Part shown: in pieces, positions 19,689 to 41,648 of the stretch
Numbering within the stretch: position 1 is the stretch's first letter
How the letters are laid out: every line of letters begins with the position of its first letter
NCBI GenBank assembly: GCA_021811155.1
Contig: JAJZPO010000005.1
Location: forward strand, 1-63,667
Direction: 5' to 3'
DNA: 63,667 nucleotides
Source: Bacillota bacterium
Lineage (GTDB): Bacteria > Bacillota > Desulfitobacteriia > Desulfitobacteriales > JAJXUE01
Notes under the pieces: generated by a model
Databases searched by the model: none
What the model was told of the DNA's origin: nothing
The model's input: the letters and a program-made list of their open reading frames with translations, nothing else
Program-made: the position numbers and the translations under genes

Positions 19689-19714
19689 TGTTATCACTTG
19701 TTATCACTCCGGAC

Positions 19715-20785: not shown

Positions 20786-20841
20786 GGTGATCCCTTCCTC
20801 TCTGTCCAAAGAGCATCCCAAAATGACCCTCAACTGAGACC

Positions 20842-20952
20842 GTTCAAAAACAAGTATAGCGCGAAGTCATGCCTGCCGGCACCGGAGGCGTGCTAAACGC
20901 ACGTTGAGGATGCCGGTAGGTATGGCGACAAAGCTAGACGCAGTTTTTCAAC
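20842..20952 (+). repeat. rod-shaped hairpin element, copy A (stem extends to 20835-20959)
   Basis: GTTCAAAAACAAGTATAGCGCGAAG...GGCGACAAAGCTAGACGCAGTTTTTCAAC fills the whole gap between the reactivase gene and orr. A 14-bp inner stem and an apical CGTGC/GCACG hairpin are visible. Confidence 0.8.
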
Positions 20953-20956
20953 GGTC

Positions 20957-24522: not shown

Positions 24523-24887
24523 TCACGCTGCCTCCCTGCAAACCACGCTTTGGCTTCATCCCAGTACTTGTCCCCGGCCAGCCCCAAACCTGCCTCCCGC
24601 AGGGGAATACCTTTCAGGCGCGAGATCCGCCAGACCACGTGTCCCGCTCCTTTGCCCAGGAGGCCGTGCTCCAGGCACTTGGCTGCAATTGCCTGGGACT
24701 CCAGGCTGGAAAAACCCATACGCAGCAAAACCGAGCGCTCGATAGAGGGGGAAGTGTGGGTTTTGGCCAATTCCAGGAGCGGTTCCGCCACTTCCCGGGC
24801 CAGCTGCCAAAACCTTTCTTTCAGTTGTTCATCGCTAAGTCCTGCCAGTTCCTTGCGCCTGGCTGCAAAATCATCAGTTCTGGCCAC
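24519..24887 (-). CDS. oraS: D-ornithine 4,5-aminomutase, small (alpha) subunit
   Basis: 122 aa, with OraS-like size, sequence and position. GTG start with GGGAGGGA RBS. Confidence 0.8.
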   Translation of the reverse strand: MARTDDFAARRKELAGLSDEQLKERFWQLAREVAEPLLELAKTHTSPSIERSVLLRMGFSSLESQAIAAKCLEHGLLGKGAGHVVWRISRLKGIPLREAGLGLAGDKYWDEAKAWFAGRQRE

Positions 24888-26319
24888 GGCCGGTCCCTCC
24901 CGTAATAATACCCATTGCTGCCAGTTCCTGTTTCACCCAATCCAGGCTTCCCCCGCAGTCTTCAGCCAGGAATTCCAAGTCAGCCTGGGTAATCCTGGCG
25001 TCAGGCAGCAGAGCGGCGGCGTTTTTAAGATAAGAGCGCCTGGCCCGGGTTAAATCTACATCCTGAATCTTGATCTGTCCGGGATGGTTAGGTATCACAA
25101 TCCGTCGGCCCGGGATATTTTCCGCCGGATCTCCCCGTGTGATTTCAATGCCGTTGCTGCGGGCAAAAGTGAGCTGGGAGTTAGGATGTTTTCCTGCCCC
25201 GGTGTATTCGGTCTCCTGCACCACCAGTATCTGATCTTCATCCATTTCCCGGGCCAGGGCAAAGGCGGCGGTCAGGGAGGTGTTCCCGGCCGGGCCGCGT
25301 TCCAGCCCTTCCAGCGCCGCCAAAGCTTCCGTCATGTAAAACACTTCTCCCTGGGTAACTGTGACATAGCGGTCCAGGTAGCGCAGAGGCCTTGCCGCGT
25401 TCCGGGGCACGTCCGCCCGGTCGGGCCAGGTGGCAAAGGGCAGCCCGAAACCCGTATGGCCGGTGGTAAAGGATTTGCGGTTGAAATCGTGGTCGCTGGC
25501 CATGTGGAGTCCTTTCAGGTCCACACTCGCCCCAATTACTTTGGTACTCTTACACCCTGCCTTTGCCAGCCCCCGGGCCGTGCCGGTAACATTTCCTCCC
25601 CCGGCGTGAGTCACCACCACAGCATCCGGGTCCCGCCCCGCCAGCTCTCTCACCTGCCCGGCCAGTTCCCAGCCCAGGGTCTCCACTCCGGCTATGCCAA
25701 ACGGTGTATAAAGCGAAGCGTTGAAATAGCCTGTTTCCTCTAACAGTACCAGGAAATAATAGAAGAGTTCGGGTCCTACTGTAAGCTGTACCACTTCAGC
25801 GCCGTAAGCTTCACAGGCCCGCCCCTTTTCCAGAATCTCCGGCTGCCCCACACCCCTGCTGTCAAAAACCTCCTGTACAATGATGCAGTTCAGTCCCCGC
25901 ATGGCGGCCTGGGAAGCAACGGCCGCGCCGTAGTTTCCGCTGGTTGCGGCAATTACGCCCCGGTAGCCGTTTCTTTGGGCGTGATAGATGGAGATGGCAG
26001 CGCGTCTGGCCTTGAAACTGCCCGAGGGATTAGCTGCCTCATCCTTAACAAAAATCCTGGCCCCTTTGCCCTTAGGCGCAAGCTTACGGGCCAGAGCGGT
26101 GAGATTCCTCATCTCCAAGAGCGGGGTATTGCCCACTCCTGTCTCCCTTTGAATCTTGGCCATTTCCTCGATGCTGTAAGCCGCCTGGCGCATCATCCCC
26201 TCATAGTCAAACCCCAGGGCGCCGCGCGAGAACTGCTCATAATCTATGCCTACAGCCTTTTTGACAATGTCCAGCTTGCGGTCCATCACCGCTTGGTAAC
26301 CCATGTCAGCCAACCTCAC
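24874..26319 (-). CDS. ortB: 2-amino-4-ketopentanoate thiolase, beta (PLP) subunit
   Basis: 481 aa, tryptophan-synthase-beta-fold PLP enzyme (NPSGSFKARRA). Start may be 6-15 nt downstream (TTG 26313 or ATG 26304). Confidence 0.8.
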   Translation of the reverse strand: MRLADMGYQAVMDRKLDIVKKAVGIDYEQFSRGALGFDYEGMMRQAAYSIEEMAKIQRETGVGNTPLLEMRNLTALARKLAPKGKGARIFVKDEAANPSGSFKARRAAISIYHAQRNGYRGVIAATSGNYGAAVASQAAMRGLNCIIVQEVFDSRGVGQPEILEKGRACEAYGAEVVQLTVGPELFYYFLVLLEETGYFNASLYTPFGIAGVETLGWELAGQVRELAGRDPDAVVVTHAGGGNVTGTARGLAKAGCKSTKVIGASVDLKGLHMASDHDFNRKSFTTGHTGFGLPFATWPDRADVPRNAARPLRYLDRYVTVTQGEVFYMTEALAALEGLERGPAGNTSLTAAFALAREMDEDQILVVQETEYTGAGKHPNSQLTFARSNGIEITRGDPAENIPGRRIVIPNHPGQIKIQDVDLTRARRSYLKNAAALLPDARITQADLEFLAEDCGGSLDWVKQELAAMGIITGGTGRGQN

Positions 26320-26620
26320 TGCCTCCCTTCAGCAGGGTCCTGAGTTCCTGGCAAATCTCAAGCAGCTCCGGCTGGGGTTCACCAAAGTTGTGGGTATATG
26401 CGGGCAGCACTCCTGCAAGTCGCCCCCTCACCGTCCGTCCCGTCACTGTTTTGATTGAAACTTCTTTCCCTGTTTCGCCGGCAGCCTCGGTCAGGAAGCC
26501 CTTAACCCACATCTCCAGCGGCACTTTTTGGGTATCTTCCGGCACCTGGGGCGCCCGCTCCCCTGCCGCAAGCACCACCCTGTAGACCTGAACCCAGTCT
26601 CCTTGTTTGGCGCTTCCCAT
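26306..26620 (-). CDS. ortA: 2-amino-4-ketopentanoate thiolase, alpha subunit
   Basis: 104 aa. The KQGDWVQVYRVVLAAGERAPQVPEDTQKVPLEMWVKGFL region is typical of OrtA. Confidence 0.8.
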   Translation of the reverse strand: MGSAKQGDWVQVYRVVLAAGERAPQVPEDTQKVPLEMWVKGFLTEAAGETGKEVSIKTVTGRTVRGRLAGVLPAYTHNFGEPQPELLEICQELRTLLKGGSEVG

Positions 26621-27676
26621 CTATTTTCGTCCCCCCCGCATTTCCACCAGGCGGCGCACATCACCCGCCAGAGCGGCCGGCACTGGCAAATCAGCCATGC
26701 TCAGAAGTCCCACCGGCGCTGTAATCACCTGGGGAATCATGTTGACTGCCATAGCCATGGTCCCCAAGCCGCCAGGAATTTCCGGCTGTATTTTCACGCT
26801 TATATCCGGCTCTCCTTCAATATTTATGTAGTCTCCCGTTTCTACTCCCTCCAATTGAGGCAGTATCTGCTGGGGATGAATCAGTTCAATCAGGACCCGC
26901 CCCTTTGACAGTCCCCGGGCGGTGTGCCTGCAGCCGGCCACCTGCCCCGGTTCCACCACAGCATAGGCCGTCTGCCGCCGCACTTTCGAAAGAATAGGCT
27001 CCCTGGTTTCCCTGACTTCGTCAATGTCCCAGCCCAGGGCCCGGGCAATCATGGCGATGGACTGTTGAAAACCCACATGGCCCACAATTTTCCCGCTGGC
27101 CAGTCCGGCTTCGAATTCCTCAGGTGTGGTCCCAACTCCTTGGGTGGCCATAACCGTTGGCCCGAAGGGGGACAGATCATTTATACGCGAGGCTGTTATT
27201 TTGTTAACCCTGAGGCATGGCCCTGTCAGGGCGATTACCAGGGTATCCAGCACGAATCCCGGGTTAATGCCGGTACCCAGGACGGAGACCCCTCTGGTTT
27301 TGGCAATTTCATCAATCTGAGCTGCCAGCTTCTCTTCCCCGGCAGCCGGAAAGGCCATTTCCTCAGCGATGGTGATTACATTCAGACCCGCTTCAGCAGA
27401 GACTTTAATTTGATTGAATACTTCCTTGGTAAAGGAGGAAGTAGCAATAACCACAATGTCTGCAGAGGGAAAGCCACCCCCATTCCGGGGTGGTTCGGTT
27501 ACGACCACGTCTAATTTCCCCGTTAAATTCAACACGTCAGCCAGGTCCCGGCCGAGCTTGCCGGGATCACGGTCAAATGCGCCAACGCTCGATAAACCGG
27601 CCTTTTCGTTTACCAGCCGGGCTATGCCTCTTCCCATGGCGCCCAAACCCCAGTGAACTACTCTGATTGCGTCCAT
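26621..27676 (-). CDS. ord: 2,4-diaminopentanoate dehydrogenase
   Basis: 351 aa with a DapB-like NAD(P) domain (VVHWGLGAMGRG). First gene of the operon. Confidence 0.8.
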   Translation of the reverse strand: MDAIRVVHWGLGAMGRGIARLVNEKAGLSSVGAFDRDPGKLGRDLADVLNLTGKLDVVVTEPPRNGGGFPSADIVVIATSSFTKEVFNQIKVSAEAGLNVITIAEEMAFPAAGEEKLAAQIDEIAKTRGVSVLGTGINPGFVLDTLVIALTGPCLRVNKITASRINDLSPFGPTVMATQGVGTTPEEFEAGLASGKIVGHVGFQQSIAMIARALGWDIDEVRETREPILSKVRRQTAYAVVEPGQVAGCRHTARGLSKGRVLIELIHPQQILPQLEGVETGDYINIEGEPDISVKIQPEIPGGLGTMAMAVNMIPQVITAPVGLLSMADLPVPAALAGDVRRLVEMRGGRK

Positions 27677-28968: not shown

Positions 28969-29361
28969 CTAACGTTTTGAGAACTGGGAAGCCTTACGGG
29001 CCTTCTTCAGACCGTATTTTCTGCGCTCCTTCATTCTCGGGTCGCGGGTAAGGAATCCAGCCCGCTTTAAAGCCGGGCGCAGCGTCGCGTCTGCTTTCAG
29101 TAAAGCCCGGGCTATGCCAAGGCGCACTGCACCGGCCTGACCGGTTGTGCCGCCTCCATGTACCAGAGCGACAATATCGAATTTGCCCACAGTCTCAGTA
29201 GTTTCCAGGGGTTGTTTGACAATCATCTCCAGAGTACGTTTACCAAAGTACTCCAGCAGCCCCTTATTATTAACCAGCATTCGGCCCTCGCCCTGTACCA
29301 GCCGTACACGGGCCACCGCATTTTTGCGGCGTCCGGTGCCATTAAATTGAACTTGTGCCAT
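28969..29361 (-). CDS. rpsI: 30S ribosomal protein S9
   Basis: 130 aa ending in the ...[12 protein letters not shown] tail typical of S9. Confidence 0.97.
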
Positions 29362-29381: not shown

Positions 29382-29810
29382 CTAACCTTGCCAAACTTCA
29401 GGTTTTTGAGCTTGATGGGGATGCTCAGAACCCCGGTAAACTTTGAGCTTGCCAAACATCTGGCTGCCCAGCTTGTTATGGGGGATCATTCCTTTTACAG
29501 CCAGTTCAATGGCCTTTTCGGGGTTTTTCTGAAGCAAGGTTTTGTAGCCAACGGCTTTAAGACCGCCAGGATATCCGGAATGATGGTAGTAAACCTTTTG
29601 TTCAATCTTTTTGCCTGTAAGCCGGACTTTTTCCGCATTGATGATAATAACATGGTCTCCTGTATCCACGTTGGGGGTGAAAGTGGGCTTATGCTTTCCC
29701 CTCAGCAGGCGGGCTGCTTCCGTTGCCAGGCGTCCGAGCGGCCTATTGGCAGCGTCCAGGACATACCATTTTCTTTCTATATTTTGAGGCGTCGCCATAA
29801 ATGTCGACAT
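29382..29810 (-). CDS. rplM: 50S ribosomal protein L13
   Basis: [23 protein letters not shown] 29810 is preceded by GGAGGG. The longest ORF starts at 29855. Confidence 0.95.
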
Positions 29811-29859
29811 TAAATTCCCTCCTAGAAATGCTGAATCCTGCAAAACCTCTGACAAGATT

Positions 29860-29922
29860 CCGGTGGGGCTCAGGCACCGGTTTTCTTAGTTTACAAATAA
29901 CCGGCGTGGGGCTCAGGCACGC
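29860..29922 (-). promoter_or_regulatory. rplM 5' leader with two hairpins carrying an identical 9-nt loop
   Basis: The minus strand reads GCGTG-CCTGAGCCC-CACGC and CCGGTG-CCTGAGCCC-CACCGG. The stems differ while the loops are identical. The hairpins lie 50-110 nt upstream of the rplM ATG. Confidence 0.45.
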
Positions 29923-30010
29923 AGGCTAAAAAGTCACAAATATATTTTAATTAAATTGCGCCCTGATGTCAAGCTAATATCTGGCCGCAGGTGGAATATC
30001 ATAGCAAATA

Positions 30011-30044
30011 AAAAATCCTTCAGGTCTTTTGACTGGAGGATTTT
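30011..30044. terminator. bidirectional terminator-like hairpin at the left island border
   Basis: AAAATCCTTCAG-gtcttttga-CTGGAGGATTTT, with A-runs and T-runs on both sides. Confidence 0.4.
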
Positions 30045-30137
30045 GGCATAAAATCGCGAATTTTTGAATTGTTGAGACTTTCTTGCTGCGTATAGAAATA
30101 TTTTTTTGACTTAAGTAACACAGAAGGTGGTGCTTAT

Positions 30138-32609
30138 ATGTCCATTGCAAAACGCTGTAATACCAAAAGCTTATATTTTTCAGAGCGAATAATTGAAGCT
30201 ATGCACAGGATCTTTGATCATCCCCTGACCATCGTCGAAGCGCCCATGGGCTATGGAAAAACTACTGCTGTCAGGGAGTATTTAAATAATACCGGCGCCC
30301 TTGTATTGTGGCAAAGAGTTAATGACAGTTCAATAAACAGCTATTGGCATGGCTTTGGCCGCCTGTTTGGTAAATTGGATGACTACCGCTCACAGAGCCT
30401 TGTCCAGCTTGGGTTTCCTAATGACAGCGTATCAAGGCAGGAAGCCTTAAATATTATTGAGGCTATTGAGCTGCCTGCTCAAACTGTGCTGGTGATCGAT
30501 GATTACCACCTGATCGACAGTTCCGATGTCAACAGCTTGATTGAGTTTCTGGTGAGAAACGAAATAGATAATCTTCACATAGTCCTTACTGTACGCTTTA
30601 CAGAGCTGCAAAACCTTGATGAACTTAGGCTTAAGGGGTATTTACATCATATAACCAAGGAAACCTTTGAGTTAAGGCCCAAGGAAATTATAAAGTATTA
30701 CAGGCTGTGCGGAATCAGCCTTAAGGATACTGAAGCCGACGAGCTGTATTCCTTTACCGAAGGCTGGATAAGTGCCCTGTATCTCCTTATGCTTAACTAT
30801 CTTGAGGAGGGCAACTTTACGACGATAGTCAGCATCTATAAGCTGGTTGAAAAGGCTGTCTACAAACCTTTTTCGGAGGAAATCAAAGATCTCCTGTTAA
30901 CTCTCTGTATTTTCGGCAGTTTTACCCTTGAACAGGCCTCCCACATGTGGCAGAAAGAAAATACGGACAAGCTTTTAACTGAGATTACTAATAAAAACGC
31001 CTTTATAAAATATGATGTGCGAACTAAAACCTATCAAATCCACAATATCTTTACCAACTTCCTGAAAGATGTGCTTGAAAGCAAACACGTTAAAAACGAA
31101 CTCTACCGGAGAGCGGCAGATTGGTTCTTGAAAACAGGCGACTATACGGAAGCTATGCATTATTTTTATGCGTGCAAGGATTTTGATAATTTACTTCTTG
31201 CGCTGGAAGAAGAAAAATCGAAAAGAATAAATGTTGAATATAATAAAGAATTGCTCATCAAGTATTATGAAGAATGCCTGGCTGAGGTTAAGGCTAAGCA
31301 TCCTTTTGCTTTGCTGATCTTCGCCATACGTTTGTTTTCCTTGCATGAAATGGTATTGTTTGGCAAGGCCTGCGGGGAATTTATCCGCAACCTGCAATTG
31401 GATGAGAGTTTAAATACGGACTTAAGAAAACGGCTCTTAGGAGAATATGAGCTCTTAATGAGTTTCACAAAATATAATGACATTGCCAAAATGTCAGAAC
31501 AGCACCAAAAATCCGGCAATCTGCTGAGTGAGCCTTCTACATTAATCTATTCGAATGGCAGTTGGACCTTTGGTTCTCCTTCGGTCTTATATATGTTTTA
31601 TCGAGAAACCGGTAAGCTTGAAAGGCAGGTTCAGGATCTAATAGGAGCGCTTCCCTATTACTACAAGCTTACAGACGGAAATGGCAGCGGTGCGGAATAT
31701 GTAATGGAGGCTGAAAGGTATTTTAATCTGGGCGATAGGGAAAATGCTGAGATAACAGTCAACAAAGCTTTATACAAAGCGCAATCCAATACACAGGTAG
31801 GAATCATAATCTGTGCCATCTTCCTGCAAATTCGCCTTAATTTGATAAAAGGTGATTTTTCCAGCATTGGGGATCTTTTTCAGAAAATGCGTGAGGATAT
31901 CACCAGCAGCAGAGAATACCTCTTTATTCACACCATGGATATCTGTGAGGGTTATATCTATTCACTCCTCAAGCAAACGGATAAGATACCGGAGTGGATT
32001 ACAAGAGGGGATTTTAACAGCAAACGTTTGCAGTTCCCTGTACTGGCTATGTTAAATATCGTGTACGGACGAGCGCTTTTAATCAAAGGAGACTACTTAA
32101 AGCTCATCGGCAGCTCGGAACATTTTATCGGTATCGCCTCTGTTTTTCCCAACCTGCTCGGACATATTTATACGTACATCTGCCTTGCGGCAGCCAACAA
32201 ACAAATCTTCAGGGAGAACGAGGCGCTTATCGCCCTGCGGCAGGCGCTCAATCTGGCCGTGCCGGACAAAGTATATATGCCTTTTGTGGAAAACTGCGAT
32301 TACATAAAACCTCTCCTCGAGCAGCTTTACAGAGAGGGTATGTACCGGGAGGATATTACCAGGATATTGGAGCTTTCTACTGCCTATCAGAGGGCGGTAG
32401 AGCAAATCATTAAGGAATATTTTAGTGAAGGAAAACCCCAACTGACCGAAAGGGAAATGGAGATAGCGCAGTTAGCGGCGGACGGGCTTACCAATAAGGA
32501 GATCGGCGGGCGCTTGTTTATTTCTCCCAACACGGTGAAAACCCAGCTAAAAAGCATTTTTGAGAAGCTTGGTGTAAACTCACGGACACTTTTACACGGG
32601 CACTTTTAA
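30138..32609 (+). CDS. MalT-like STAND ATPase / LuxR-family transcriptional regulator
   Basis: 823 aa with Walker [10 protein letters not shown], Walker B VLVIDDYH, the TEGW signature, a long helical-repeat (TPR-like) middle section and a C-terminal LuxR HTH ([45 protein letters not shown]). Confidence 0.88.
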
Positions 32610-32665
32610 AGGAAGTCGATTTCCATTAATTCCGCTAGAGCCTAAAAAGGATGAACAGCATAACA

Positions 32666-32740
32666 AAAGATCACCCGATGGGTGATATAAACAAGAAAAA
32701 ATCCACTGTACAATTTTTGTGTGGTGGATTTTTGCTTTTT
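32666..32740 (+). repeat. two-hairpin module, copy 1 (small palindrome + long-stem terminator)
   Basis: ATCACCCGATGGGTGAT, then AATCCACTGTACAA-ttt-TTGTGTGGTGGATT followed by a T-run. About 85 percent identical by eye to 37205-37276. Confidence 0.8.
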
Positions 32741-32755
32741 GGAGGGGGTGATGAA

Positions 32756-32986
32756 GTGAGCCGTATAAAAAGTGTGGTGCCCAAGGGGGATTACCGCTTG
32801 GAGGTGCTTTTGGATAACGGCAGCAGCGTAATTCTGAATCTGGAAAGCAGACTGCAGACGTTGAGGTTCGGCATGCTTTCGGACAAGGAGTTTTTTAAAA
32901 CGGCAACCACTGATGGAATCTGTATCCGGTGGGGCGATTTGATTGAAATTTCCGTCACTGAAGTATTTCAGCTGGCGCAGAAATAA
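32756..32986 (+). CDS. DUF2442-family small protein
   Basis: 76 aa from GTG 32756, with GGAGGGGG RBS. The pattern IKSVVPKGDYRLEVLLDNGSSVILNL...FGMLSDKEFF...ICIRWGDLIEIS matches my recollection of the DUF2442 profile. The longer 111-aa ORF would start inside the upstream terminator. Confidence 0.6.
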   Translation: MSRIKSVVPKGDYRLEVLLDNGSSVILNLESRLQTLRFGMLSDKEFFKTATTDGICIRWGDLIEISVTEVFQLAQK

Positions 32987-33012
32987 CAACAATAAAAAGT
33001 GAGGAAAAGTAT

Positions 33013-36000
33013 ATGAAAAATGTTAAGAAGCTATTGAGTATCGTATTAACGGTATGCATGATATTATCAGTGCTGCCCATGACGGCGCTGGCGGCCATGG
33101 CGCCGGCGGTGAAGCTATCCAGCCTCACGGCGGGCAGCACCGTCAGCTACGGCGGGCTTGACTGGACCGTCCTCAATCCCCAGACAGGATATCTCTGTAT
33201 GAAAAACGCGTGGAGCGATTCTAGTATCGCTTACGACATCGCTTACGACAAGTATGCAAGTGCCATCTATGATCCGACCTATACAAATAATATCGCGTAC
33301 GCCGCCAATACGACCTTTTACAACTCCCTGCCGGCTGCCGATGCCGCGCTGATCCAGCCCCACACATGGAATATCGGTTATTATGATCAAGCTGCAAAGC
33401 CGAACGTCAATCATGAAACCGATAAAACCGCCAGCTGCAAAATCGGCATGCTCAGCTACACCGAATGGCAAAGCTATCATCAATATATCAGCGAGCCAAG
33501 TAAGTTCTGGCTGATTACACCGTCGGAAAGCGGCTATAGTTGTGCATTTCGAAATTGGATCTCCTCGAATGCAGGCGGTGTGATTACCTTGTATGGTACA
33601 AATTCCAATTCAACCGGGCCCGCCCTGTTTTCGCTGTATTTATCTCCCGATGCTGCCGTTTCAAATGGTACCGTACTGGGTGGCACGACTCCTTATCCTG
33701 TCCCGGCGGTGACAGGCGTCAGCCCGTCAACGGGCTATACCGTCGGGGGAGCATCCGTCACCGTCACCGGCTACGGATTTCTGAATGCATCGGCCGTGAA
33801 TTTTGGAGCAAATGCGGCAACAAGCTTCACGGTTGATGACAACAACACCATCACAGCCGTCGCGCCGGCCGGAACCGGAACTGTCGATGTGACCGTCACA
33901 GGTCCGGGCGGAACGAGTTCTGCGGTTTCAGCAGATCAGTTTGTCTATACAGCGGCGCCTGCACCCACCGTCACCGGCATCAGTCCCACCATCGGCCTGA
34001 CAATCGGCGGCGGGACAGTCACAATCATCGGTTCCGATTTGACCGGAGCTACCGAGGTTGATTTCGGTGCAACGAAAGCAACAAGCTTCACGGTTGATGA
34101 CGACAACACCATCACAGCCGTCGCGCCGGCCGGTACCGGAACCGTCGATGTGACCGTCACAGGTCCGGGCGGCATGAGTGCGGCGCTGCCGGCCGATCAG
34201 TACACATATGTCGCCGGTTCGATACCGGCTGTCACATCGGTGGCGCCTGCCGTCGGCTCAAACGACGGCGGGACATCGGTGACGATCACCGGAACCGGCT
34301 TTGCTGGGACGACAGCCGTTACCTTTGGTTCAATCGCGGCGACCGGCTTTGACGTCAACAATGACGGCACGCAGATTACAGCCATCGCCCCGGCTCAGTC
34401 TGCAGCCACCGTCGATGTCACCGTGACCAACCCCTTGGGGACGAGCAGCACGAGCAGCGCCAACATGTTTACGTATCAGACGACGCTATATTCCATTACC
34501 GTCGCTAGCGGCGTCACAGGCGGCACAATCACACCCAGCGTCACCTCGGCTGCTTCGGGAACAACCGTGACGCTGGCGGTTACCCCCGATGACAACATGA
34601 TGCTGAAAAGCGGAACGCTGATGGTCAATGGAAACGGCATTCCGGGAGACAGCTTCACAATGCCCGCAGGAAATGTGACGATCACCGCGACGTTTCAGTC
34701 CGTGTACGTCTTTGACAGTTCAACCGGAACAATCGTCAGTTATATTGGGACCGGCGGCAACATCTCCATTCCCTCCCAGATCGGCGGTGTCACGGTGACC
34801 GCCATCGGAGCCGGCGCGTTCAGCCATTCGGCGGCGATCACGTCCCTGGTTATACCGGATTCCGTCACGTCGATTGGCAGCGCCGCATTTTACGGTTGCT
34901 ACAATTTAACCTCGGTGACAATCCCCGACAGTGTGACAAGTATCGGCAGCACCGCGTTTGCTTACACCGGGTTGACCTCGGTTACGCTGCCAAGCCGCCT
35001 TGCAAAGCTGGCCGTCGGCGTGTTCTATTACACAGACCTGACCAGCGTCACCATACCGGCCAGCGTCACAGCCATAGACGCGGGCGCCTTTCAGGACTGT
35101 CTTGACTTAAGGCAGGTCACCTTCCAGGGGTCATGCCCCACCTTCGGCAACTTAGTCTTTTCTAACAGCAGCACAAATCAGAATCTCGTCACGATCTATT
35201 ATCCGGGCGGGGATACGGCATATACGGCAGAGCATGTTCTGTCCGGCATCACACTGACTGCTTACTATACTGTCACATATAACGCAAACAACGCTGACTC
35301 CGGCTCCGTGCCGTCAGACAGCACGATGTACTATGACGGCAGCGCCGTCACCGTCTCGAGCAATACCGGAAACCTCGCGCGAACCGGGTATGTCTTTGAC
35401 GGGTGGAATACCGCCGCCGACGGCAGCGGAACGCGTTATGCTCCAGCCGACGCCATCACCTTCGGGACGGGAACGGGCAATGTCAAATCTGCCGTCACAC
35501 TCTGTGCCCAGTGGCTGAAAACCTCGTATACTCCACCTTCAACTCCAACACCGACTACGGTTACAGGCAGTGTGATAAACGGGACCAACGGGGCCAAGGT
35601 ATCCAATATTACCGCCACAGTCACTACCGACAGCAGCGGCAACAGCACAGTATCCATGCAGGCGGCTGATGTGATCGGGATGAAAGGGCCGGACGGAACC
35701 GGCGGCAGCATGTTCGGCGACTTGTCCAAACTGGCCTTGACAAGCACCGGGGGTTCAGCCATCACCGTTACCGCCGAAGGTACATTAAGTATCGGAAGCC
35801 TGGCCAAAGGCACGGACAATACTTATGATATTGTTTATGACCTGGGCAACGGCCAGAAGATCGTGGTCGGCACCATGGAAGTGAAGATTGACAGCAGCGG
35901 CAAAGTCAGCTTAACGGCTAGCTTAATAGACCCCTACGGAATCATCACGGACGCAACAACCGGCAAAGCCCTGGCGGGAGTCAATGTCACCCTGTACTAT

Positions 36001-37185
36001 GCTGATACCTCCCGGAACAAAGCCGCGGGCAAAACTCCGGATACCGTTGTCGTCCTGCCCGGCATCACAGGATTCAAACCTAACAATAACCAGGATCCCC
36101 AGACCAGTGACTTAAGCGGTACCTATGGCTTCATGGTTTTTCAGGACACCGATTACTACATCGTTGCCACCAAGGACGGGTATGACCAGTACACAAGCCC
36201 GACGATTTCCGTGGATAAGGAAATCGTGCACTGGGACTTCAAGATGAGCCCAACTACTTCCGGAGTGACAAGACTGGCGGGCCAAAGCCGGGTCGATACA
36301 GCACTCGCCATCGCCAAAGCGGAATACCCGGGCAAGCTTGAGAATGTCGTCCTGGCCACGGCGGACAACTATCCGGATGCCTTAGCCGGAAGTGCCCTGG
36401 CCTATAAGCTGAATGCGCCTATACTCCTCGTGGGGAGTTCAGAAGCGGATCAGGCAAAAGTTCTGGACTACTTGAAGTCCAACCTGGATCCGGCAGGAAC
36501 TGTCTATATCCTGGGCGGCACCGGAGCAGTCAGCAGCGCCATGGAAGCCAAAGTGACAGCGACTGGTTTCAACCATATCACCAGGCTCGGTGGAACAGAC
36601 CGCTATGAAACCGCCGTCAAAATAGCGGGCCAATTAGGAGTCAGGAGCGGAACCCCGGTTGTGCTGGTGACCGGTGAAAACTATCCGGACGGACTGTCCG
36701 TCAGCAGTGTTGCGGCGCAAATGCAGCTGCCGGTCTTGTTGGTCCGGAAAGATGGGATCAGTGGCGCCGTCGCGCAGGAAATTGCTGCCATCAAGCCCGC
36801 CAAAGTCTATATCATCGGAAGGGAAGGGGCCATCGGCACAGCTGTGGAAAACCAGGTTGCCCAAATCACGGGTCTGGCTCAGGCGAATATTGTCAGGATC
36901 GGGGGAGCCGACCGCTATGAAACCTCTCTGGCTGTCGCCCAATACTTCAGGTTATCCGGGCAAAGTGTCTGTGTGGCCACAGGCAACAACTTCCCCGATG
37001 CCATGGCCGGAAGTGTCTATGCTGCCAACTTCAATGCCCCGATTATCTTAGCCGATGGCAGCTTGTCGGATAAGGCCATGAATTATTTGCAGACCAGAAA
37101 AATGACCGGAGCGACAATATTCGGCGGAGAGGCAGTTGTCAGTAAAGACATTGAGCAGAAGCTTTTACAGTTGATTGGGAAATAG
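33013..37185 (+). CDS. large secreted, cell-wall-anchored mosaic surface protein
   Basis: Signal peptide MKNVKKLLSIVLTVCMILSVLPMTALA. Three IPT/TIG-like repeats (VTG[VI]SP..G...GG..VT[VI].G). An InlB-B-repeat-like module. BspA-type LRRs (IPDSVTSIGSAAFYGCYNLTSVTIPDSVTSIG). A Listeria-Bacteroides repeat (YTVTYNANNADSGSVP...GYVFDGWNTAADGSG). A CarboxypepD_reg-like beta-sandwich. Three C-terminal CWB2 repeats (R[LI][AG]G.[DS]R[YV][ED]T..). Confidence 0.85.
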   Translation: MKNVKKLLSIVLTVCMILSVLPMTALAAMAPAVKLSSLTAGSTVSYGGLDWTVLNPQTGYLCMKNAWSDSSIAYDIAYDKYASAIYDPTYTNNIAYAANTTFYNSLPAADAALIQPHTWNIGYYDQAAKPNVNHETDKTASCKIGMLSYTEWQSYHQYISEPSKFWLITPSESGYSCAFRNWISSNAGGVITLYGTNSNSTGPALFSLYLSPDAAVSNGTVLGGTTPYPVPAVTGVSPSTGYTVGGASVTVTGYGFLNASAVNFGANAATSFTVDDNNTITAVAPAGTGTVDVTVTGPGGTSSAVSADQFVYTAAPAPTVTGISPTIGLTIGGGTVTIIGSDLTGATEVDFGATKATSFTVDDDNTITAVAPAGTGTVDVTVTGPGGMSAALPADQYTYVAGSIPAVTSVAPAVGSNDGGTSVTITGTGFAGTTAVTFGSIAATGFDVNNDGTQITAIAPAQSAATVDVTVTNPLGTSSTSSANMFTYQTTLYSITVASGVTGGTITPSVTSAASGTTVTLAVTPDDNMMLKSGTLMVNGNGIPGDSFTMPAGNVTITATFQSVYVFDSSTGTIVSYIGTGGNISIPSQIGGVTVTAIGAGAFSHSAAITSLVIPDSVTSIGSAAFYGCYNLTSVTIPDSVTSIGSTAFAYTGLTSVTLPSRLAKLAVGVFYYTDLTSVTIPASVTAIDAGAFQDCLDLRQVTFQGSCPTFGNLVFSNSSTNQNLVTIYYPGGDTAYTAEHVLSGITLTAYYTVTYNANNADSGSVPSDSTMYYDGSAVTVSSNTGNLARTGYVFDGWNTAADGSGTRYAPADAITFGTGTGNVKSAVTLCAQWLKTSYTPPSTPTPTTVTGSVINGTNGAKVSNITATVTTDSSGNSTVSMQAADVIGMKGPDGTGGSMFGDLSKLALTSTGGSAITVTAEGTLSIGSLAKGTDNTYDIVYDLGNGQKIVVGTMEVKIDSSGKVSLTASLIDPYGIITDATTGKALAGVNVTLYYADTSRNKAAGKTPDTVVVLPGITGFKPNNNQDPQTSDLSGTYGFMVFQDTDYYIVATKDGYDQYTSPTISVDKEIVHWDFKMSPTTSGVTRLAGQSRVDTALAIAKAEYPGKLENVVLATADNYPDALAGSALAYKLNAPILLVGSSEADQAKVLDYLKSNLDPAGTVYILGGTGAVSSAMEAKVTATGFNHITRLGGTDRYETAVKIAGQLGVRSGTPVVLVTGENYPDGLSVSSVAAQMQLPVLLVRKDGISGAVAQEIAAIKPAKVYIIGREGAIGTAVENQVAQITGLAQANIVRIGGADRYETSLAVAQYFRLSGQSVCVATGNNFPDAMAGSVYAANFNAPIILADGSLSDKAMNYLQTRKMTGATIFGGEAVVSKDIEQKLLQLIGK

Positions 37186-37204
37186 GAAAGAGTAGAGGTT
37201 GCTT

Positions 37205-37276
37205 AAAAATCACCCGCTGGGTGATATAACCAGCCAAGAATCCACTGTACAATTTTTGTATGGTGGATTTTTTTGG
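37205..37276 (+). repeat. two-hairpin module, copy 2
   Basis: ATCACCCGCTGGGTGAT, then AATCCACTGTACAA-ttt-TTGTATGGTGGATT followed by a T-run. Lies just after the surface-protein stop. Its 3' arm plus the following bases read TTGTAT-17 nt-TATAAT. Confidence 0.8.
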
Positions 37277-37299
37277 AGTATAATACGGGGAGATATTTT

Positions 37300-38709
37300 A
37301 TGAGAAAAAAAATCAGCACAATTATTGTACTAATTTTTATTATTGCGGCTTTGCGATATTCTCTTTTTTACGTTACCGCGCTTGACGCCTCTCTTAGAGT
37401 GTTTTACAGCATTCAAGGGTTATCCCTGTTTTTTGCCTATTATTATACTATAATTGGGTATATTGGTTTATTCAGACTGAAAAAAAGGCCAATAATAAAT
37501 AGGGGAAAATTCCATAGTTTTGCGGTGCTTGTGTCAGCACACAATGAGGAAAAGGTTATCGGTGATATAATTGATAATTTGGAGCAATTATACTACCCCA
37601 AAAATCTATACGACGTGTATGTGTTATGCGATAATTGTACCGACAATACTGCTGCAATCGTAAAATCAAAACGTCATGCCATAACTTTGGAACGAAATGA
37701 TCCATTGCGAGTTGGAAAAGGCTATGGCCTTGAATGGGCGTTTGATAAATTATGGGAGCTAGAAGACCGAGGTAAGAAATATGATGCGATTGTAATGTTC
37801 GATGCGGATAATCTTGTCAGTAAAAGTTTTCTTATGTTTGCGAATGATAAGTTATTAGAGGGGCATGAGGTAATTCAAGGTTACTTGGATTGTAAGAATC
37901 CAACGGATAACTGGATTACAAAAGCTTATGCATTTTCCTACTGGTCAACCAACAGGACCTTCCAATTAGCACGTGAAAATCTAGGCTTAAGCGCACAATT
38001 GGGAGGAAGCGGTGTTATCGTTACTACAAAGGTTATAAAGGAAATCGGCTGGGGATCCACCTCCTTAACCGAGGACTTGGAATTTACACAGCGCTATATT
38101 TTAGAAACTGGAAAACGTGTAGCATGGGCTCATGATGCCAAGGTTTATGATGAAAAGCCAACAGGAATTAGAGCATCGTGGAAACAACGGGTCCGCTGGA
38201 TGTCTGGTCATGCTGACTGTATGGTAAGATATTTTCCCCGAATGCTCAAAGAAGCCATAAGAAAAGGAAGTTTACTGCACCTTGATGGAGCAATTTATTT
38301 AGTCCAACCATCTCGAATAGTTATTTCATCGGTGCTGTTATTTGCCGTGGCAATTTCATTTATTCCAGCGCCAGGAGCTTATAAGTTTCTTCTCTATGGA
38401 AGATTAACATTTCTAAACCGTTGGGTGGCTTTGGCGGGTATGTTAGGCTATTATTCTCTTCCGTTTGTTGGGCTTATTCTTGAAGGAAAGGCAAAGGCTA
38501 TTTGGTGGACTGTTGGCACTTATATCTACAGTTTAACTTGGATGCCGATAACCTTATTAGGGATTGTTAGAAGAAAGGAAAAAAACTGGGCACATACTCA
38601 ACATGCGCGCAGCATGTCTATCAATGATTTGACATTAAAGTCATCAGATATAATCGCGATGGAGGAAGCATATCGTTGCCTGGAACAAGCAGCTGCGGCT
38701 AAAGAATAG
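37300..38709 (+). CDS. membrane-embedded processive family-2 glycosyltransferase (synthase type)
   Basis: N-terminal and C-terminal TM helices flank a GT2 core with D/DxD/D and QxxRW motifs (SAHNEE, CDNCTDN, FDADN, TEDLE, QRVRW). ATG 37300 is preceded by GGGGAG. Confidence 0.85.
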   Translation: MRKKISTIIVLIFIIAALRYSLFYVTALDASLRVFYSIQGLSLFFAYYYTIIGYIGLFRLKKRPIINRGKFHSFAVLVSAHNEEKVIGDIIDNLEQLYYPKNLYDVYVLCDNCTDNTAAIVKSKRHAITLERNDPLRVGKGYGLEWAFDKLWELEDRGKKYDAIVMFDADNLVSKSFLMFANDKLLEGHEVIQGYLDCKNPTDNWITKAYAFSYWSTNRTFQLARENLGLSAQLGGSGVIVTTKVIKEIGWGSTSLTEDLEFTQRYILETGKRVAWAHDAKVYDEKPTGIRASWKQRVRWMSGHADCMVRYFPRMLKEAIRKGSLLHLDGAIYLVQPSRIVISSVLLFAVAISFIPAPGAYKFLLYGRLTFLNRWVALAGMLGYYSLPFVGLILEGKAKAIWWTVGTYIYSLTWMPITLLGIVRRKEKNWAHTQHARSMSINDLTLKSSDIIAMEEAYRCLEQAAAAKE

Positions 38710-38798
38710 GGAAATTTGATACTGACGAACTTCATTTTCCCGTGGACTTTTTGTCATTTTTTCCTTCCTTTACCCTGGTGCGTCACTCTGCACAGGTT

Positions 38799-39884
38799 TT
38801 AAAAAACCAACATCGCCACAGCGCCTGTGATGATGCCGCACAAAGCTACCGCGCCGGCAACAAGCATCAGCACCCGCGTCGGGAAACTGCGTTTTATCAT
38901 GAGCAGCGAGGGCAGGCTCACAGCTGGAAGGGTCATGAGCAGGGCCGCTCCCGGACCTGCACCGAGGCCAAAGGCCATCATCGACTGAACAATCGGTATT
39001 TCTGCAGCAGTGGGGATGACAAATAATGTTCCAGCGATCGCAAGCCCGATTAACACCAAAATACTGCTGCCCAATGCGGGATTGATTTCCGGGAAAAGCC
39101 AGGCGCGCACAGCCCCAAGTATTGCCACCACTATAAAGTAGGCAGGGATGGTATCAAGGATCAAAGGGCCCAGGGCGCGCAGCCAGCGTACAAACAAGTT
39201 TCCTTGTTCAACTTCAGAGCTCTGCGCCGGCATAATATCCTCAGGTATATCCTGCTCTTTGCTAAAGCGGTTGGCCAGGTAACCAATTCCCAGCACCATG
39301 ATTACTCCGGCAATAATACGCATGAGGGCAAATTTCCAGGACAGCACAAATCCCATGAAAACAATGGTTGCCGGATTTAGTACCGGGTTGGAGATCCAGT
39401 AGGACAGGGCGGCTCCAGCAGAGGCCTTGCCTTTGCGCAAACCCACCACCACTGGGGCGGAACAGCAGGTACACATCATCGAGGGTATGCCCATAACAGC
39501 AGCGAGGGCTGTATTTGAAAAACCTGTACGGCCAAGGGCCTTTTGAATCCAGTTCGAAGGTAATAGCACTTGCACCAAGGAGCCCAGCAGAAGTCCTAGG
39601 ACCACGGCTTGCCAAACTGCTTTAAAGTAACTGACCGCATAAGACCAAGCGGCAGACCATGATGGGACCGGCGGCGCGGCTGCCTTACCTGAAATAAATG
39701 ATACGCCGATCGAATGCTGGCTGGCTGCCACAAAGGCTTTGTGATAATATGGGTTCCATTTTACATACCATACGCCCACAACGAAAACCACTGCAAACAA
39801 AAGAATATAGGGAAGATAGGCGCGATCCCCCTCCCGGCCTTTTTGTGTACTTGAAGATCCCGGGGTTACAACGTTTTGATTCAC
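38799..39884 (-). CDS. ArsP/DUF318-type permease
   Basis: 361 aa, polytopic, with the cysteine motif MMCTCCSAPV typical of this permease family. GTG start with GAGAGGAG RBS. Confidence 0.7.
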   Translation of the reverse strand: MNQNVVTPGSSSTQKGREGDRAYLPYILLFAVVFVVGVWYVKWNPYYHKAFVAASQHSIGVSFISGKAAAPPVPSWSAAWSYAVSYFKAVWQAVVLGLLLGSLVQVLLPSNWIQKALGRTGFSNTALAAVMGIPSMMCTCCSAPVVVGLRKGKASAGAALSYWISNPVLNPATIVFMGFVLSWKFALMRIIAGVIMVLGIGYLANRFSKEQDIPEDIMPAQSSEVEQGNLFVRWLRALGPLILDTIPAYFIVVAILGAVRAWLFPEINPALGSSILVLIGLAIAGTLFVIPTAAEIPIVQSMMAFGLGAGPGAALLMTLPAVSLPSLLMIKRSFPTRVLMLVAGAVALCGIITGAVAMLVF

Positions 39885-40063
39885 TTGCCTTTTCTCCTCT
39901 CGTTTTTGTCAGTTCCTGTGAAGTAAAGAAACATTTCATAAGTTTCAGTTATATATACAATATAATTATATTATACTACGATTGCCAAGTTTGCACTACC
40001 CTCCTGCCACAATACCAGACTTTTTGAGCCGGCAGTACTCTGAGCATGCCGGGCATACAACAC

Positions 40064-40095
40064 AAAAACGTCAGCGCTGTCTGCTGACGTTTTTT
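40064..40095 (-). terminator. intrinsic (bidirectional) terminator after truA
   Basis: AAAAACGTCAGC-gctgtct-GCTGACGTTTTT, 6 nt after the truA stop. Confidence 0.8.
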
Positions 40096-40101
40096 AACAA
40101 A

Positions 40102-40842
40102 TCAATATTCAACGTGCATGAGGCAAAGTCCTTGGGGCGGCGCCGTGACTCCACCTGTAGTCCGGTCGTGGGATCCGATTATGCCCGGGATATCCGCCGG
40201 GTAGATCTTTCCCTTACCCACCTCCACCAAGGTGCCGCTGATTATTCTGACCATATTGTACAGGAATCCGTCGGCCTCGCAGGTAATCCGGATTAGCGGT
40301 CCCTCTCGCAGAACTTCACACTTGGTAAGGCTTCTGACAAAGTTTTTTACCGGGCTCCCTGCAGCACAGAATGCTCGAAAGTCCTTCCTTCCTTCCATCA
40401 GCAGCGCTGCTTCTTGCATAGCCGGAAAGTCCAGCCGTTGCGGCACGTGGTAGGTAAAGCGACGGTTGAAAACAGAGGAGACGGGCTGGTTGTAAAGGCT
40501 GTAGCAGTAGCGCTTCCATCTGGCTGAAAACCTGGCATTAAATTCAGGCGGAACAATTTCGGCCTGCTTTACCCGGATGTCGTAGGGAAGTAGGCTGTTT
40601 AAAGCTTTAGGGAGCTTGTCCATAGGAATCTTTGTGTCGGATGTAAAGTTTATCACCTGTCCTAAAGCATGGACTCCGGCATCGGTTCTTCCGGCCATAA
40701 TCAGCTTTACACTTTGGTTGGTAAGCCTGGCCAATCTGTCTTCCAATATTCCCTGGATAGTTGGTCCGTGAAACATGGGCTGGCGTTGAAAACCATGGTA
40801 GTCTGTCCCATCGTATTCCAACACAAGTTTGATGTTGAACAT
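40102..40842 (-). CDS. truA: tRNA pseudouridine(38-40) synthase
   Basis: MFNIKLVLEYDGTDYHGFQRQ and GRTDAGVHA catalytic motif. Confidence 0.95.
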   Translation of the reverse strand: MFNIKLVLEYDGTDYHGFQRQPMFHGPTIQGILEDRLARLTNQSVKLIMAGRTDAGVHALGQVINFTSDTKIPMDKLPKALNSLLPYDIRVKQAEIVPPEFNARFSARWKRYCYSLYNQPVSSVFNRRFTYHVPQRLDFPAMQEAALLMEGRKDFRAFCAAGSPVKNFVRSLTKCEVLREGPLIRITCEADGFLYNMVRIISGTLVEVGKGKIYPADIPGIIGSHDRTTGGVTAPPQGLCLMHVEY

Positions 40843-40844
40843 GC

Positions 40845-41648
40845 TTACCTCCCAAACAACCGTACCCCTAACACAAACAGCAGGATGCAGGTGACCGCGG
40901 TCAGGACTAGATAGTCCGGCACAGTCAGGCGCATCTCACGGAAGCGGGTCCTGCCGTCTCCTCCCCGGTAGCAGCGCACTTCCATGGCCAGGGCCAGGTC
41001 ATCCGCCCGCCTGAAGGCCCCGATCAGCAGGGGAATGAGCAGGGGCATGAAGCCCCGTGCGCGTTTCAGGGGTCCTCCCCTGCCGAGGTCAGCTCCCCTG
41101 GCCTGCAAGGCTTTTACCAGACGGTCCCCTTCCTCCATGATGGCAGGGACGAACCGGATGGCAATGGTCATCATCAGAGCCACTTCGTGGCCGGGAAAGC
41201 CCAGCCTGGCTAAAGGCTTGAACAGCCTTTCCAGCCGGTCCGTCAGGTCCACCGGCGATGTGGTAAATGTGAAGACCCCCGTAACCAATACCGTCAGGGC
41301 CAGGCGGGAAGCCATAAAAAGGCCTGCATCAAGGCCCTCTGAACTTAGTACAACAGGTCCCAGCCTAGCCAGTGGCTTCCCGGGGAAGGTCAGGGAGTTA
41401 ATAACCAGTGTAACCAGGAAGATCGGCCACAGGGCTTTGATGCTGGTCAGGTAGTGTTTCAGGGGCACCCCAGCCAGGGCAATTATACCTGCTAGAAGCA
41501 GGACTACGGCCAACAAGCCGGGCCAGCCGGCTGGAAGAAAAACCAGCAAGATCAGGACCGCAGTCCCCCACAGTTTCGTTCCCGGGTCAAGTTTGTGGAC
41601 GAAGGAGTTACCGGGCATGAACTGGCCAAGCCGCAAGTCTTTAAACAT
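40845..41648 (-). CDS. ecfT: ECF transporter transmembrane (T) component
   Basis: 267 aa, CbiQ family (FVHKLDPGTKL, ARG..L motifs), located after two EcfA genes. Confidence 0.9.
   Translation of the reverse strand: MFKDLRLGQFMPGNSFVHKLDPGTKLWGTAVLILLVFLPAGWPGLLAVVLLLAGIIALAGVPLKHYLTSIKALWPIFLVTLVINSLTFPGKPLARLGPVVLSSEGLDAGLFMASRLALTVLVTGVFTFTTSPVDLTDRLERLFKPLARLGFPGHEVALMMTIAIRFVPAIMEEGDRLVKALQARGADLGRGGPLKRARGFMPLLIPLLIGAFRRADDLALAMEVRCYRGGDGRTRFREMRLTVPDYLVLTAVTCILLFVLGVRLFGR

Follow-up and report, generated by a model that had tools for sequence, protein, structure and literature searches.

The window analysed here, a 63,667-nucleotide (nt) stretch of contig JAJZPO010000005.1 from a Bacillota bacterium of the Desulfitobacteriales, carries about 10.1 kb of DNA between truA and rplM, two neighbouring genes of the ribosomal-protein supercluster. 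The block holds genes for a MalT-type STAND NTPase regulator, a small DUF2442-fold protein, a giant secreted surface protein, a membrane synthase of glycosyltransferase family 2 (GT2) and a permease, and it contains two copies of a 68-nt cis element. We read this block as a composite, lineage-specific insertion built around a portable module for surface-protein expression, in which a promoter would be embedded in the regulator's own terminator and a second copy of the element would bring the synthase under the same control. To this reading, taken with both of those parts, we give a probability of roughly two in three (0.68). The insertion itself is ordinary, being cargo that landed between two operons, and the module is known in kind, as a STAND/LuxR activator with an adjacent target operon. 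The particular module and its cis element appear to be undescribed; full-text searches of the literature yielded no description of a regulator–DUF2442–surface-protein module or of the palindrome that the element contains.

The regulator, its small partner and the surface protein

The case for a module comes from gene neighbourhoods, which we examined in Desulfosporosinus fructosivorans (L095), Desulfosporosinus orientis DSM 765 (L123), two metagenomic contigs (L094 and L096) and 23 JGI metagenome loci (L097-L119). A regulator gene followed 100-270 bp downstream by the small gene occurs in 19 of the 24 informative homologous loci, with the pair found at L095, L099-L101, L105-L108, L110-L116, L118, L119 and L123 and the regulator homologues 43-86% identical. 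Where a locus reaches far enough downstream, a large secreted or surface protein is in most cases encoded next. Judging from this synteny, the regulator and the small protein are the constant part of the module and the surface cargo its variable part. A first-pass annotation of the same DNA, made from the sequence without database searches, had proposed that all five genes of the block form one functional unit. That proposal holds for the regulator, DUF2442 and surface genes, which are linked by this synteny and by a common cis element, and the GT2 gene is tied to them by a copy of the element; it fails for the permease, which is unlinked.

The regulator gene (30138-32609, plus strand) encodes an 823-aa protein whose translation contains a Walker A motif (GYGKTT) and a Walker B motif (VLVIDD). 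Its nucleotide-binding oligomerization domain (NOD) aligns to MalT (PDB 8bob; residues 15-348, E 6.7e-12), its N-terminal half (residues 11-359) scores 146 bits with the NCBIfam MalT model, and its C-terminal LuxR/GerE helix-turn-helix (HTH) reaches 61.8 bits with PF00196 against a cut-off of 23.5 (residues 768-817), a region that also matches the GerE, NarL and VraR structures. In Pfam, the matches to AAA_16 (26.6 bits, threshold 32.6) and TPR_MalT (18.6 bits against 45) fall below threshold; PF25873 (WHD_MalT), and often PF17874, are precomputed on the 99%-identical protein P0121 and on other homologues. The matches in Pfam, NCBIfam and the PDB together bear out the earlier identification of a STAND/LuxR regulator. 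The family is well conserved and large, with more than 2,000 homologues, and members that are 56-86% identical are found in Desulfosporosinus, Syntrophomonas, Sporomusa, Pelotomaculum and many metagenomic Firmicutes.

Two more specific assignments were rejected. The protein is not a MalT orthologue, since its 146 bits compare with an equivalog cut-off of 537 and no maltose genes occur in any neighbourhood examined. An anti-phage STAND/Avs-like system was likewise set aside: PADLOC found no defence system and returned only a match to the HTH region (CARF3, E 5e-8) and a P-loop fragment. With the MalT/LAL activators the regulator shares a P-loop NOD, a putative helical sensor region, a C-terminal GerE/LuxR HTH and a gene position beside the presumed target operon. 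It differs from them in its predicted site, which is a 7-3-7 inverted repeat rather than a set of direct-repeat MalT boxes, and in the constant DUF2442 partner gene, the giant surface-protein cargo and the lack of maltose genes; the half-site GGGTGA presumably resembles the MalT-box core GGA(T/G)GA.

The small gene (32756-32986, plus strand) is the first gene of the predicted regulated operon and encodes 76 aa from a GTG start that follows a GGAGG site. A 111-aa open reading frame (ORF) had been a candidate for this gene and was rejected; an independent assembly carries the same 76-aa call. The subfamily is tight, with a length of 76 aa, a mean column identity of 78% and homologues that are 76-87% identical, the window protein being 86-87% identical to those of Desulfosporosinus. 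The window protein scores 18.9 bits with PF10387, below the gathering score of 23.9, a domain that many of its 80-87% identical homologues do carry, and a sequence comparison with the PDB gave no significant match. Its AlphaFold (AF2) model, with a mean pLDDT of 91.6, matches 2auw_A, the N-domain of Nitrosomonas NE0471, with a Foldseek probability of 1.00, a TMq of 0.80 and a root-mean-square deviation of 2.0 Å, and matches 3k8r with a TMq of 0.71. The DUF2442 label already given to this gene is thus correct as to fold, though the Pfam score stays below threshold. DUF2442 is often paired with DUF4160 in toxin–antitoxin-like loci. The protein described here shares the fold of the DUF2442 proteins (2AUW) and differs from them in being partnered with a STAND/LuxR regulator rather than with DUF4160 or an HTH fusion.

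The surface gene (33013-37185, plus strand) encodes 1390 aa that begin with a signal peptide, visible in the translation as KK, a hydrophobic stretch and ALA-A. According to Pfam, the chain continues through a DUF6273-like N-domain, three TIG domains, Flg_new_2, a BspA-type LRR_5, Flg_new and a CarboxypepD_reg-like stalk to three CWB2 domains. The CWB2 match (PF04122) scores 193 bits in three stretches over residues ~1086-1390, and the NCBIfam SlpA model matches the same region. The protein had been described as wall-anchored, and wall binding is indeed predicted by the three CWB2 domains; the anchor would, however, be non-covalent rather than of the sortase/LPXTG type, which we rejected on finding that the C-terminus is a CWB2 domain ending in QKLLQLIGK, with no LPXTG. 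No wall-polymer locus was identified in the window.

Residues 853-1390, comprising the stalk and the three CWB2 domains, are 68% identical to the C-terminus of a 1423-aa CWB2 protein of D. fructosivorans, and the D. orientis protein is 57% identical to the window protein in the stalk and 72% in the CWB2 region. The heads of the window and Desulfosporosinus proteins are unrelated; a domain pair in L108 shares 40% identity with the N-domain of the window protein. Cargo at the homologous loci is diverse, including proteins with YDG/MBG/Calx-beta/Big_13 domains (more than 2,509 aa), with SLH and cadherin-like domains (1,576 aa) and with eleven Flg_new repeats (more than 1,955 aa), as well as DUF6273-like plus Flg_new, LRR_5, MORN/zinc-ribbon and chagasin-like inhibitor proteins; both Desulfosporosinus species have Collar and CWB2 giants. 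Across the loci the surface heads vary and the wall anchors match the host. Collar proteins (PF07484, phage-tail-collar) lie between the DUF2442 gene and the CWB2 giant in D. fructosivorans (L095, 4436-4981) and D. orientis (L123, 7341-7973), and the window is without them.

Like members of the Cwp family of Clostridioides difficile, the window protein joins a signal peptide and variable functional domains to three CWB2 domains in tandem. It differs from them in that the CWB2 domains are C-terminal on a conserved stalk, the head is made of DUF6273-like, TIG, Flg_new and BspA-LRR domains, and the gene sits in a dedicated regulator module rather than in a slpA/cwp cluster. The TIG region of the gene (33800-34201) contains a 141-nt tandem-like repeat, 87% identical, with a period of 261 nt. 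No short-read contig spans the surface gene, probably because of this repeat and the repeated CWB2 units.

The 68-nt element

A repeat search revealed a 68-nt direct repeat, 88% identical, with copy 1 at 32666-32733, between the regulator stop codon and the small gene, and copy 2 at 37205-37272, between the surface-gene stop codon and the GT2 start. Copy 1 consists of a box (32670-32686, plus strand), the palindrome ATCACCC-GAT-GGGTGAT, which we predict to be a LuxR-type binding site, and of a hairpin with a T-run (32697-32733, plus strand) that was found in the terminator scan, ends the regulator gene and contains a predicted -10 hexamer, TACAAT, at 32709-32714. Copy 2, also on the plus strand, has its box at 37209-37225, its TACAAT at 37248-37253 and its hairpin at 37236-37272, and it ends the surface gene and precedes GT2. 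The 17-bp palindrome ATCACCC-N3-GGGTGAT occurs twice in the 63.7-kb window against an expectation of 0.09, and a further 17 loci have it downstream of their regulator gene.

The palindrome core ACCC/GGGT is invariant in 21 instances, and the outer positions change symmetrically, as in GTACCC...GGGTAC. A hexamer was located in 21 instances, and its distance from the box centre is 31 nt in 19 of them and 30 and 32 nt in the other two. Within the hexamer, which is situated in the hairpin's left arm and loop, the T, A and final T of TAnnnT are invariant in 21/21 sequences, and the final T is unpaired. Such an invariant TAnnnT at a fixed spacing is the signature of a -10 element. Another candidate for the -10, TGATATAAA, which overlaps the right half-site, was rejected on account of its last hexamer position, which is A rather than T in nearly all loci.

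The hairpin has a stem of 12-14 bp followed by a T-run, with compensatory double changes in 9 of 14 pairs and 95% of cells paired. Its covariation score is 0.291, compared with 0.149 for shuffles and at most 0.075 when the partners are slid, and G-U pairs occur only on the plus strand. Because of this covariation and the strand-specific G-U pairs, we regard it as a real RNA hairpin that serves as the terminator of the regulator gene.

If the hexamer occupies -12 to -7, the centre of the palindrome falls near -43, and a -35 is lacking. In class II LuxR-type activator-dependent promoters, a box near -42/-43 replaces the -35 in just this geometry. We infer that the element is a LuxR-type activator-dependent promoter embedded in the terminator of the upstream gene, with a start site placed by motif geometry alone. 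Shared with the LuxR/TraR class II promoters are a palindrome of ~17-20 bp near -42/-43 in place of the -35 and a fixed distance to the -10. The differences are that the -10 lies here inside the terminator hairpin of the upstream gene, that the start is a predicted one, and that the activator is a STAND ATPase rather than an acyl-homoserine-lactone receptor.

In the model that we favour, the regulator would sense a signal and bind the 17-bp palindrome (centre ~-43) as a dimer or oligomer, and the bound regulator would recruit RNA polymerase to a -35-less promoter whose -10, TACAAT, sits within the regulator's own terminator hairpin. Transcripts begun in the right arm of the hairpin would lack the left arm; for this reason they would contain no terminator, escape termination and enter the DUF2442–surface operon. 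The DUF2442 protein would most likely act on the regulator as an auto-induced feedback partner, and not on the cargo, because it is constant while the cargo varies. Copy 2 of the element would place GT2 under the same control, such that an envelope glycan or glycolipid would be made along with the surface protein. The ArsP-type permease would be an unrelated neighbour.

Alternatively, the 68-nt repeat may lack promoter function and be just an RNA element common to the 3' ends of the regulator and surface genes, made of a small hairpin and an intrinsic terminator, with GT2 as an independent neighbour; of the competing explanations this one survives best, and we consider it unlikely but deserving of some weight. 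The hairpin and T-run do form a textbook terminator, its covariation and strand-specific G-U pairs point to a role in RNA, and copy 2 sits at the 3' end of the surface gene, with a separate TATAAT before GT2. A terminator would not explain, however, why the palindrome core and an unpaired T are invariant, why TAnnnT, also invariant, lies at a rigid 31-nt distance from the palindrome centre, or why every locus has the element immediately before its first regulated gene. Nor is another promoter evident in the 20-40 nt that precede the small gene. We prefer a promoter embedded in a terminator.

Some loci carry the module in decayed form. In L109 (1400-1530) only a single half-site of the palindrome is left and the small gene breaks off after ~10 codons, and in L094 (4463-5203) the small gene runs in frame into a CWB2 remnant. 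In L096 (5932-6569) the box is intact, and the hairpin is interrupted and followed by an ORF similar to reverse transcriptases of group II introns. Group II introns tend to insert at terminators, and the arrangement in L096 fits this tendency.

A broader proposal can be made, which we offer tentatively, as possible rather than probable: that the regulator, DUF2442 and the 68-nt element together are a portable and undescribed switch for giant, head-variable adhesins in anaerobic Firmicutes, with DUF2442 as a new type of auto-induced partner for a STAND regulator and an element that can be copied to recruit unrelated genes. Giant surface proteins are the main interface of uncultured anaerobic Firmicutes with substrates, partners and phages, and the control of their expression is hardly known. 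The module would supply a recurrent regulatory unit across Desulfosporosinus, Syntrophomonas-like and other lineages, consisting of a regulator family, a 17-bp predicted operator, a promoter of fixed geometry and a small partner. DUF2442 would thereby gain its first context outside toxin–antitoxin systems, and copying of a 68-nt element would represent a simple route for wiring a foreign gene into an existing regulon.

The synthase, the permease and base composition

The GT2 gene (37300-38709, plus strand) encodes 469 aa in which the motifs CDNCTD, FDADN, LTEDLEF and QRVRW and hydrophobic N- and C-terminal segments can be read from the translation; Pfam assigns Glyco_tranf_2_3, with 85 bits for PF13641 and 76 bits for PF13632. 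The protein has the D, DxD, TED, QxxRW core flanked by transmembrane segments that is typical of processive GT2 synthases (PgaC/IcaA, EpsU, cellulose-synthase-like and monoglucosyl-diacylglycerol synthase), and differs from these in having no partner genes such as PgaABD or BcsB and in the stand-alone occurrence of its homologues. It is not an equivalog of EpsU (152 bits against 700) or of PgaC/IcaA (56.8 against 422), and its only match in the PDB is a weak, N-terminal one to TarP. The best homologues, 52-58% identical, come from Peribacillus, other Bacillaceae and Clostridium and lie in unrelated contexts, one of them beside ltaS and teichoic-acid genes. None of the three homologues whose surroundings we examined has a regulator, DUF2442 or CWB2 gene nearby.

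The element in front of this gene, which ends 27 nt before the GT2 ATG, still has the hairpin and a perfect box, with TACAAT at the 31-nt spacing. Among all of the elements, the nearest relative of copy 2 is copy 1, which suggests duplication within this genome; D. orientis and D. fructosivorans have one element each and no GT2. The simplest interpretation would be that a foreign synthase gene has been captured into the regulon in this lineage.

The permease gene (38799-39884, minus strand, in the direction of truA) encodes a 361-aa protein of the ArsP_1 family (98 bits in Pfam). It lies on the strand opposite to that of the other four genes and has a promoter-like site at 39988-39959. The palindrome search of the window found no box at this gene, and no permease homologue occurs near any regulator or GT2 homologue examined. 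We have treated the permease as an unrelated neighbour of the module.

Base composition sets the genes of the block apart from one another. Against a backbone reference of 58 ORFs, with a GC content of 0.547 ± 0.036 and a GC content at third codon positions (GC3) of 0.611 ± 0.056, the GT2 gene is a clear outlier (GC 0.394, GC3 0.353, 4.6 standard deviations below the backbone). The regulator (GC 0.424, GC3 0.490) is 2.2 standard deviations below the backbone GC3 and the small gene (GC ~0.44, GC3 0.47) about 2 standard deviations low; the surface gene (GC 0.557, GC3 0.644) and the permease gene (GC 0.527, GC3 0.550) are backbone-like. The composition had been called mosaic by eye, and mosaic it is, with the GT2 and regulator genes AT-rich as stated; the surface gene, however, had been taken for GC-rich and is backbone-like. 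Regulator homologues lie 4-13 GC points under their flanks in every host examined, and because they are AT-rich in every host, the AT-richness of the regulator stems partly from amino-acid composition (GC at second codon positions 0.31). The block is a composite mosaic with at least three compositional histories, and not one co-acquired system.

These data bear directly on the possibility that all five genes are one co-acquired island and a single regulated envelope/adhesion system, the permease included, which we regard as improbable. The genes lie side by side between the truA terminator and the rplM promoter, the ends are the same in all same-species contigs that reach into the block, and all of the products are envelope-related. 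Yet the five genes fall into at least three compositional classes, with GC3 values of 0.35, 0.47-0.49, 0.55 and 0.64, and the five-gene set does not recur: ~30 regulator loci have neither a GT2 nor a permease homologue nearby, and three GT2 homologues have no regulator, small or CWB2 gene near them. The permease gene, moreover, is convergent with GT2 and has its own promoter-like site and no box.

The truA–rplM junction and the rest of the window

The backbone of the region is the ribosomal-protein supercluster on the minus strand, in the order rpoA, rplQ, ecfA, ecfA', ecfT (40845-41648), truA (40102-40842), the block, rplM (29382-29810), rpsI (28969-29361) and a CwlD-like Amidase_3 gene. The gene calls put truA and rplM ~10.1 kb apart with five ORFs between them, four on the plus strand and the permease on the minus strand, in agreement with the gap of about 10 kb and the five genes of mixed orientation noted at first pass. 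The left edge had been set at 29931, which falls ~55 bp inside the rplM promoter/leader. Contig L002 matches the window at 100% identity for 9,095 bp and diverges exactly at 29985/29986, and contigs L012 and L013 stop at the truA stop codon (40101/40100); the block therefore spans ~29986-40101 (~10.1 kb), from the rplM promoter to the truA stop codon. The organism is uncultured and known solely through metagenome assemblies (GCA_027356595.1 and several sequencing runs, the source samples including SRR22746123-138, SRR13189623 and SRR10278331), and contigs of the species from several samples share the island ends at 99.5-100% identity. The truA intrinsic terminator (40064-40094, minus strand) is a 12-pair stem with a T-run identified in the terminator scan, and it is absent from the truA–rplM spacer of the nearest relative, L014.

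This relative was found by comparing TruA across 185,579 species representatives, among which L014 is closest at 72% identity and all others reach at most 52%; its RplM and RpsI are 80% and 91% identical to those of the window. In L014 the truA–rplM gap is ~200 bp, with the rplM promoter starting ~25 nt after the truA stop codon. In a sample of 36 genomes that have rplM within reach of truA, the two genes are a median of 182 bp apart; 28 of the genomes have at most 300 bp there, and unrelated inserts of 0.5-7.9 kb are present in 8. The junction is thus usually tight, though not inviolate. The island had been proposed without sight of any relative, and with an empty site in L014 and a short interval in most other genomes, a lineage-specific insertion at a normally tight junction is supported.

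The absence of an integrase, a transposase, a tRNA and flanking direct repeats, which the first-pass annotation had remarked on, was confirmed. No integrase or transposase domains were found among the block proteins with Pfam and NCBIfam, the tRNA/tmRNA scan was negative, and the two block edges share no direct or inverted repeats of at least 8 nt. A repeat search of the whole block returned only the 68-nt pair and the intragenic TIG/CWB2 repeats. The block accordingly differs from a classical integrase-mediated island in having no integrase or recombinase, no tRNA/tmRNA target and no flanking direct repeats, and it is like such an island in its absence from relatives and in the deviant composition of the GT2 and regulator genes.

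The missing mobility genes, tRNA and target-site repeats would also suit the view that the block is ancestral content lost in relatives, with no insertion at all, as would the backbone-like composition of the surface and permease genes and the fact that no empty-site contig was recovered within the species. We nevertheless judge ancestral content to be very unlikely. The spacer is tight not only in the nearest relative but in the 28 of 36 other genomes, which belong to many lineages, and the rplM promoter of L014 begins almost directly after truA; the GT2 and regulator genes are off the backbone composition, and other genomes carry the module at different, unrelated positions, such as behind smpB in D. 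orientis.

Least plausible of all is the idea that the 68-nt repeats are recombination substrates around a swappable or excisable DUF2442 and surface cassette, allowing on/off or head switching: the repeats bracket exactly the small and surface genes, the heads vary from species to species while stalk and anchor are conserved, and the surface gene is unspanned by short-read contigs, but the repeats are only 88% identical with a longest identical run of ~20 nt, no recombinase lies nearby, the element is single-copy in D. orientis and D. fructosivorans, and the internal TIG and CWB2 repeats account for the contig breaks.

Beyond its break, contig L002 (1-301) carries the 3' end of a BTAD/TPR-domain gene, in the direction of rplM and directly upstream of the rplM promoter, a fragment with no counterpart elsewhere in the window or in the examined loci. 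This variant is either a second cargo at the junction or an assembly chimera. Together with the contig ends at the truA stop codon, the L002 break hints at population heterogeneity, a signal that is not separable from assembly artefacts.

Several points count against a composite insertion built around a regulated module. The small gene is lacking in the informative loci L096, L103, L104, L109 and L117. The regulator (GC3 0.49) and the surface gene (0.64) differ in composition though both are ~70% identical to Desulfosporosinus proteins, and the module may itself be chimeric. The palindrome core could also form an RNA hairpin, and the 68-nt unit could then be a two-hairpin 3' end of the upstream genes. 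As for the synthase, the TATAAT between copy 2 and the GT2 start is preceded by a weak -35 (TTGTAT, 16-nt spacer), and given this separate site GT2 might be transcribed independently; the link between GT2 and the element is seen in this genome only. Lastly, the L002 junction, which is the sole within-species alternative to the block, is documented by 301 bp at the end of a contig and may stem from misassembly.

The rplM promoter and leader (29856-29972, minus strand) belong to the backbone and not to the island. The promoter, TTGACA-17-TAAAAT (29972-29944), is near consensus, and the 5' leader (29856-29943) folds into two hairpins whose 9-nt loops are the same, CCUGAGCCC. For the 15-mer GTGCCTGAGCCCCAC, 0.01 occurrences would be expected in the window and exactly two are present; the L014 leader (10810-10900) also has it twice, with different stems. 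This leader is a candidate for a lineage-specific L13 autoregulatory leader. Rfam gave nothing at gathering score over the whole window, and neither the rplM leader nor the 68-nt element matches a described family; at E ≤ 1, a single chance match to CrcZ was obtained over 29.7-40.2 kb.

Two further features lie elsewhere in the window. An EamA-family transporter gene (12757-13668, minus strand) is markedly AT-rich for the backbone (GC 0.465, GC3 0.497) and could represent a further small acquisition. An ornithine/lysine fermentation cluster (~18969-27676, minus strand) that lies downstream of rpsI and cwlD encodes OrtA, a PALP enzyme, OAM/lysine aminomutase subunits with a B12-binding domain, a MutL-like reactivase, an alanine racemase and an arginase, which indicates an amino-acid-fermenting anaerobe.

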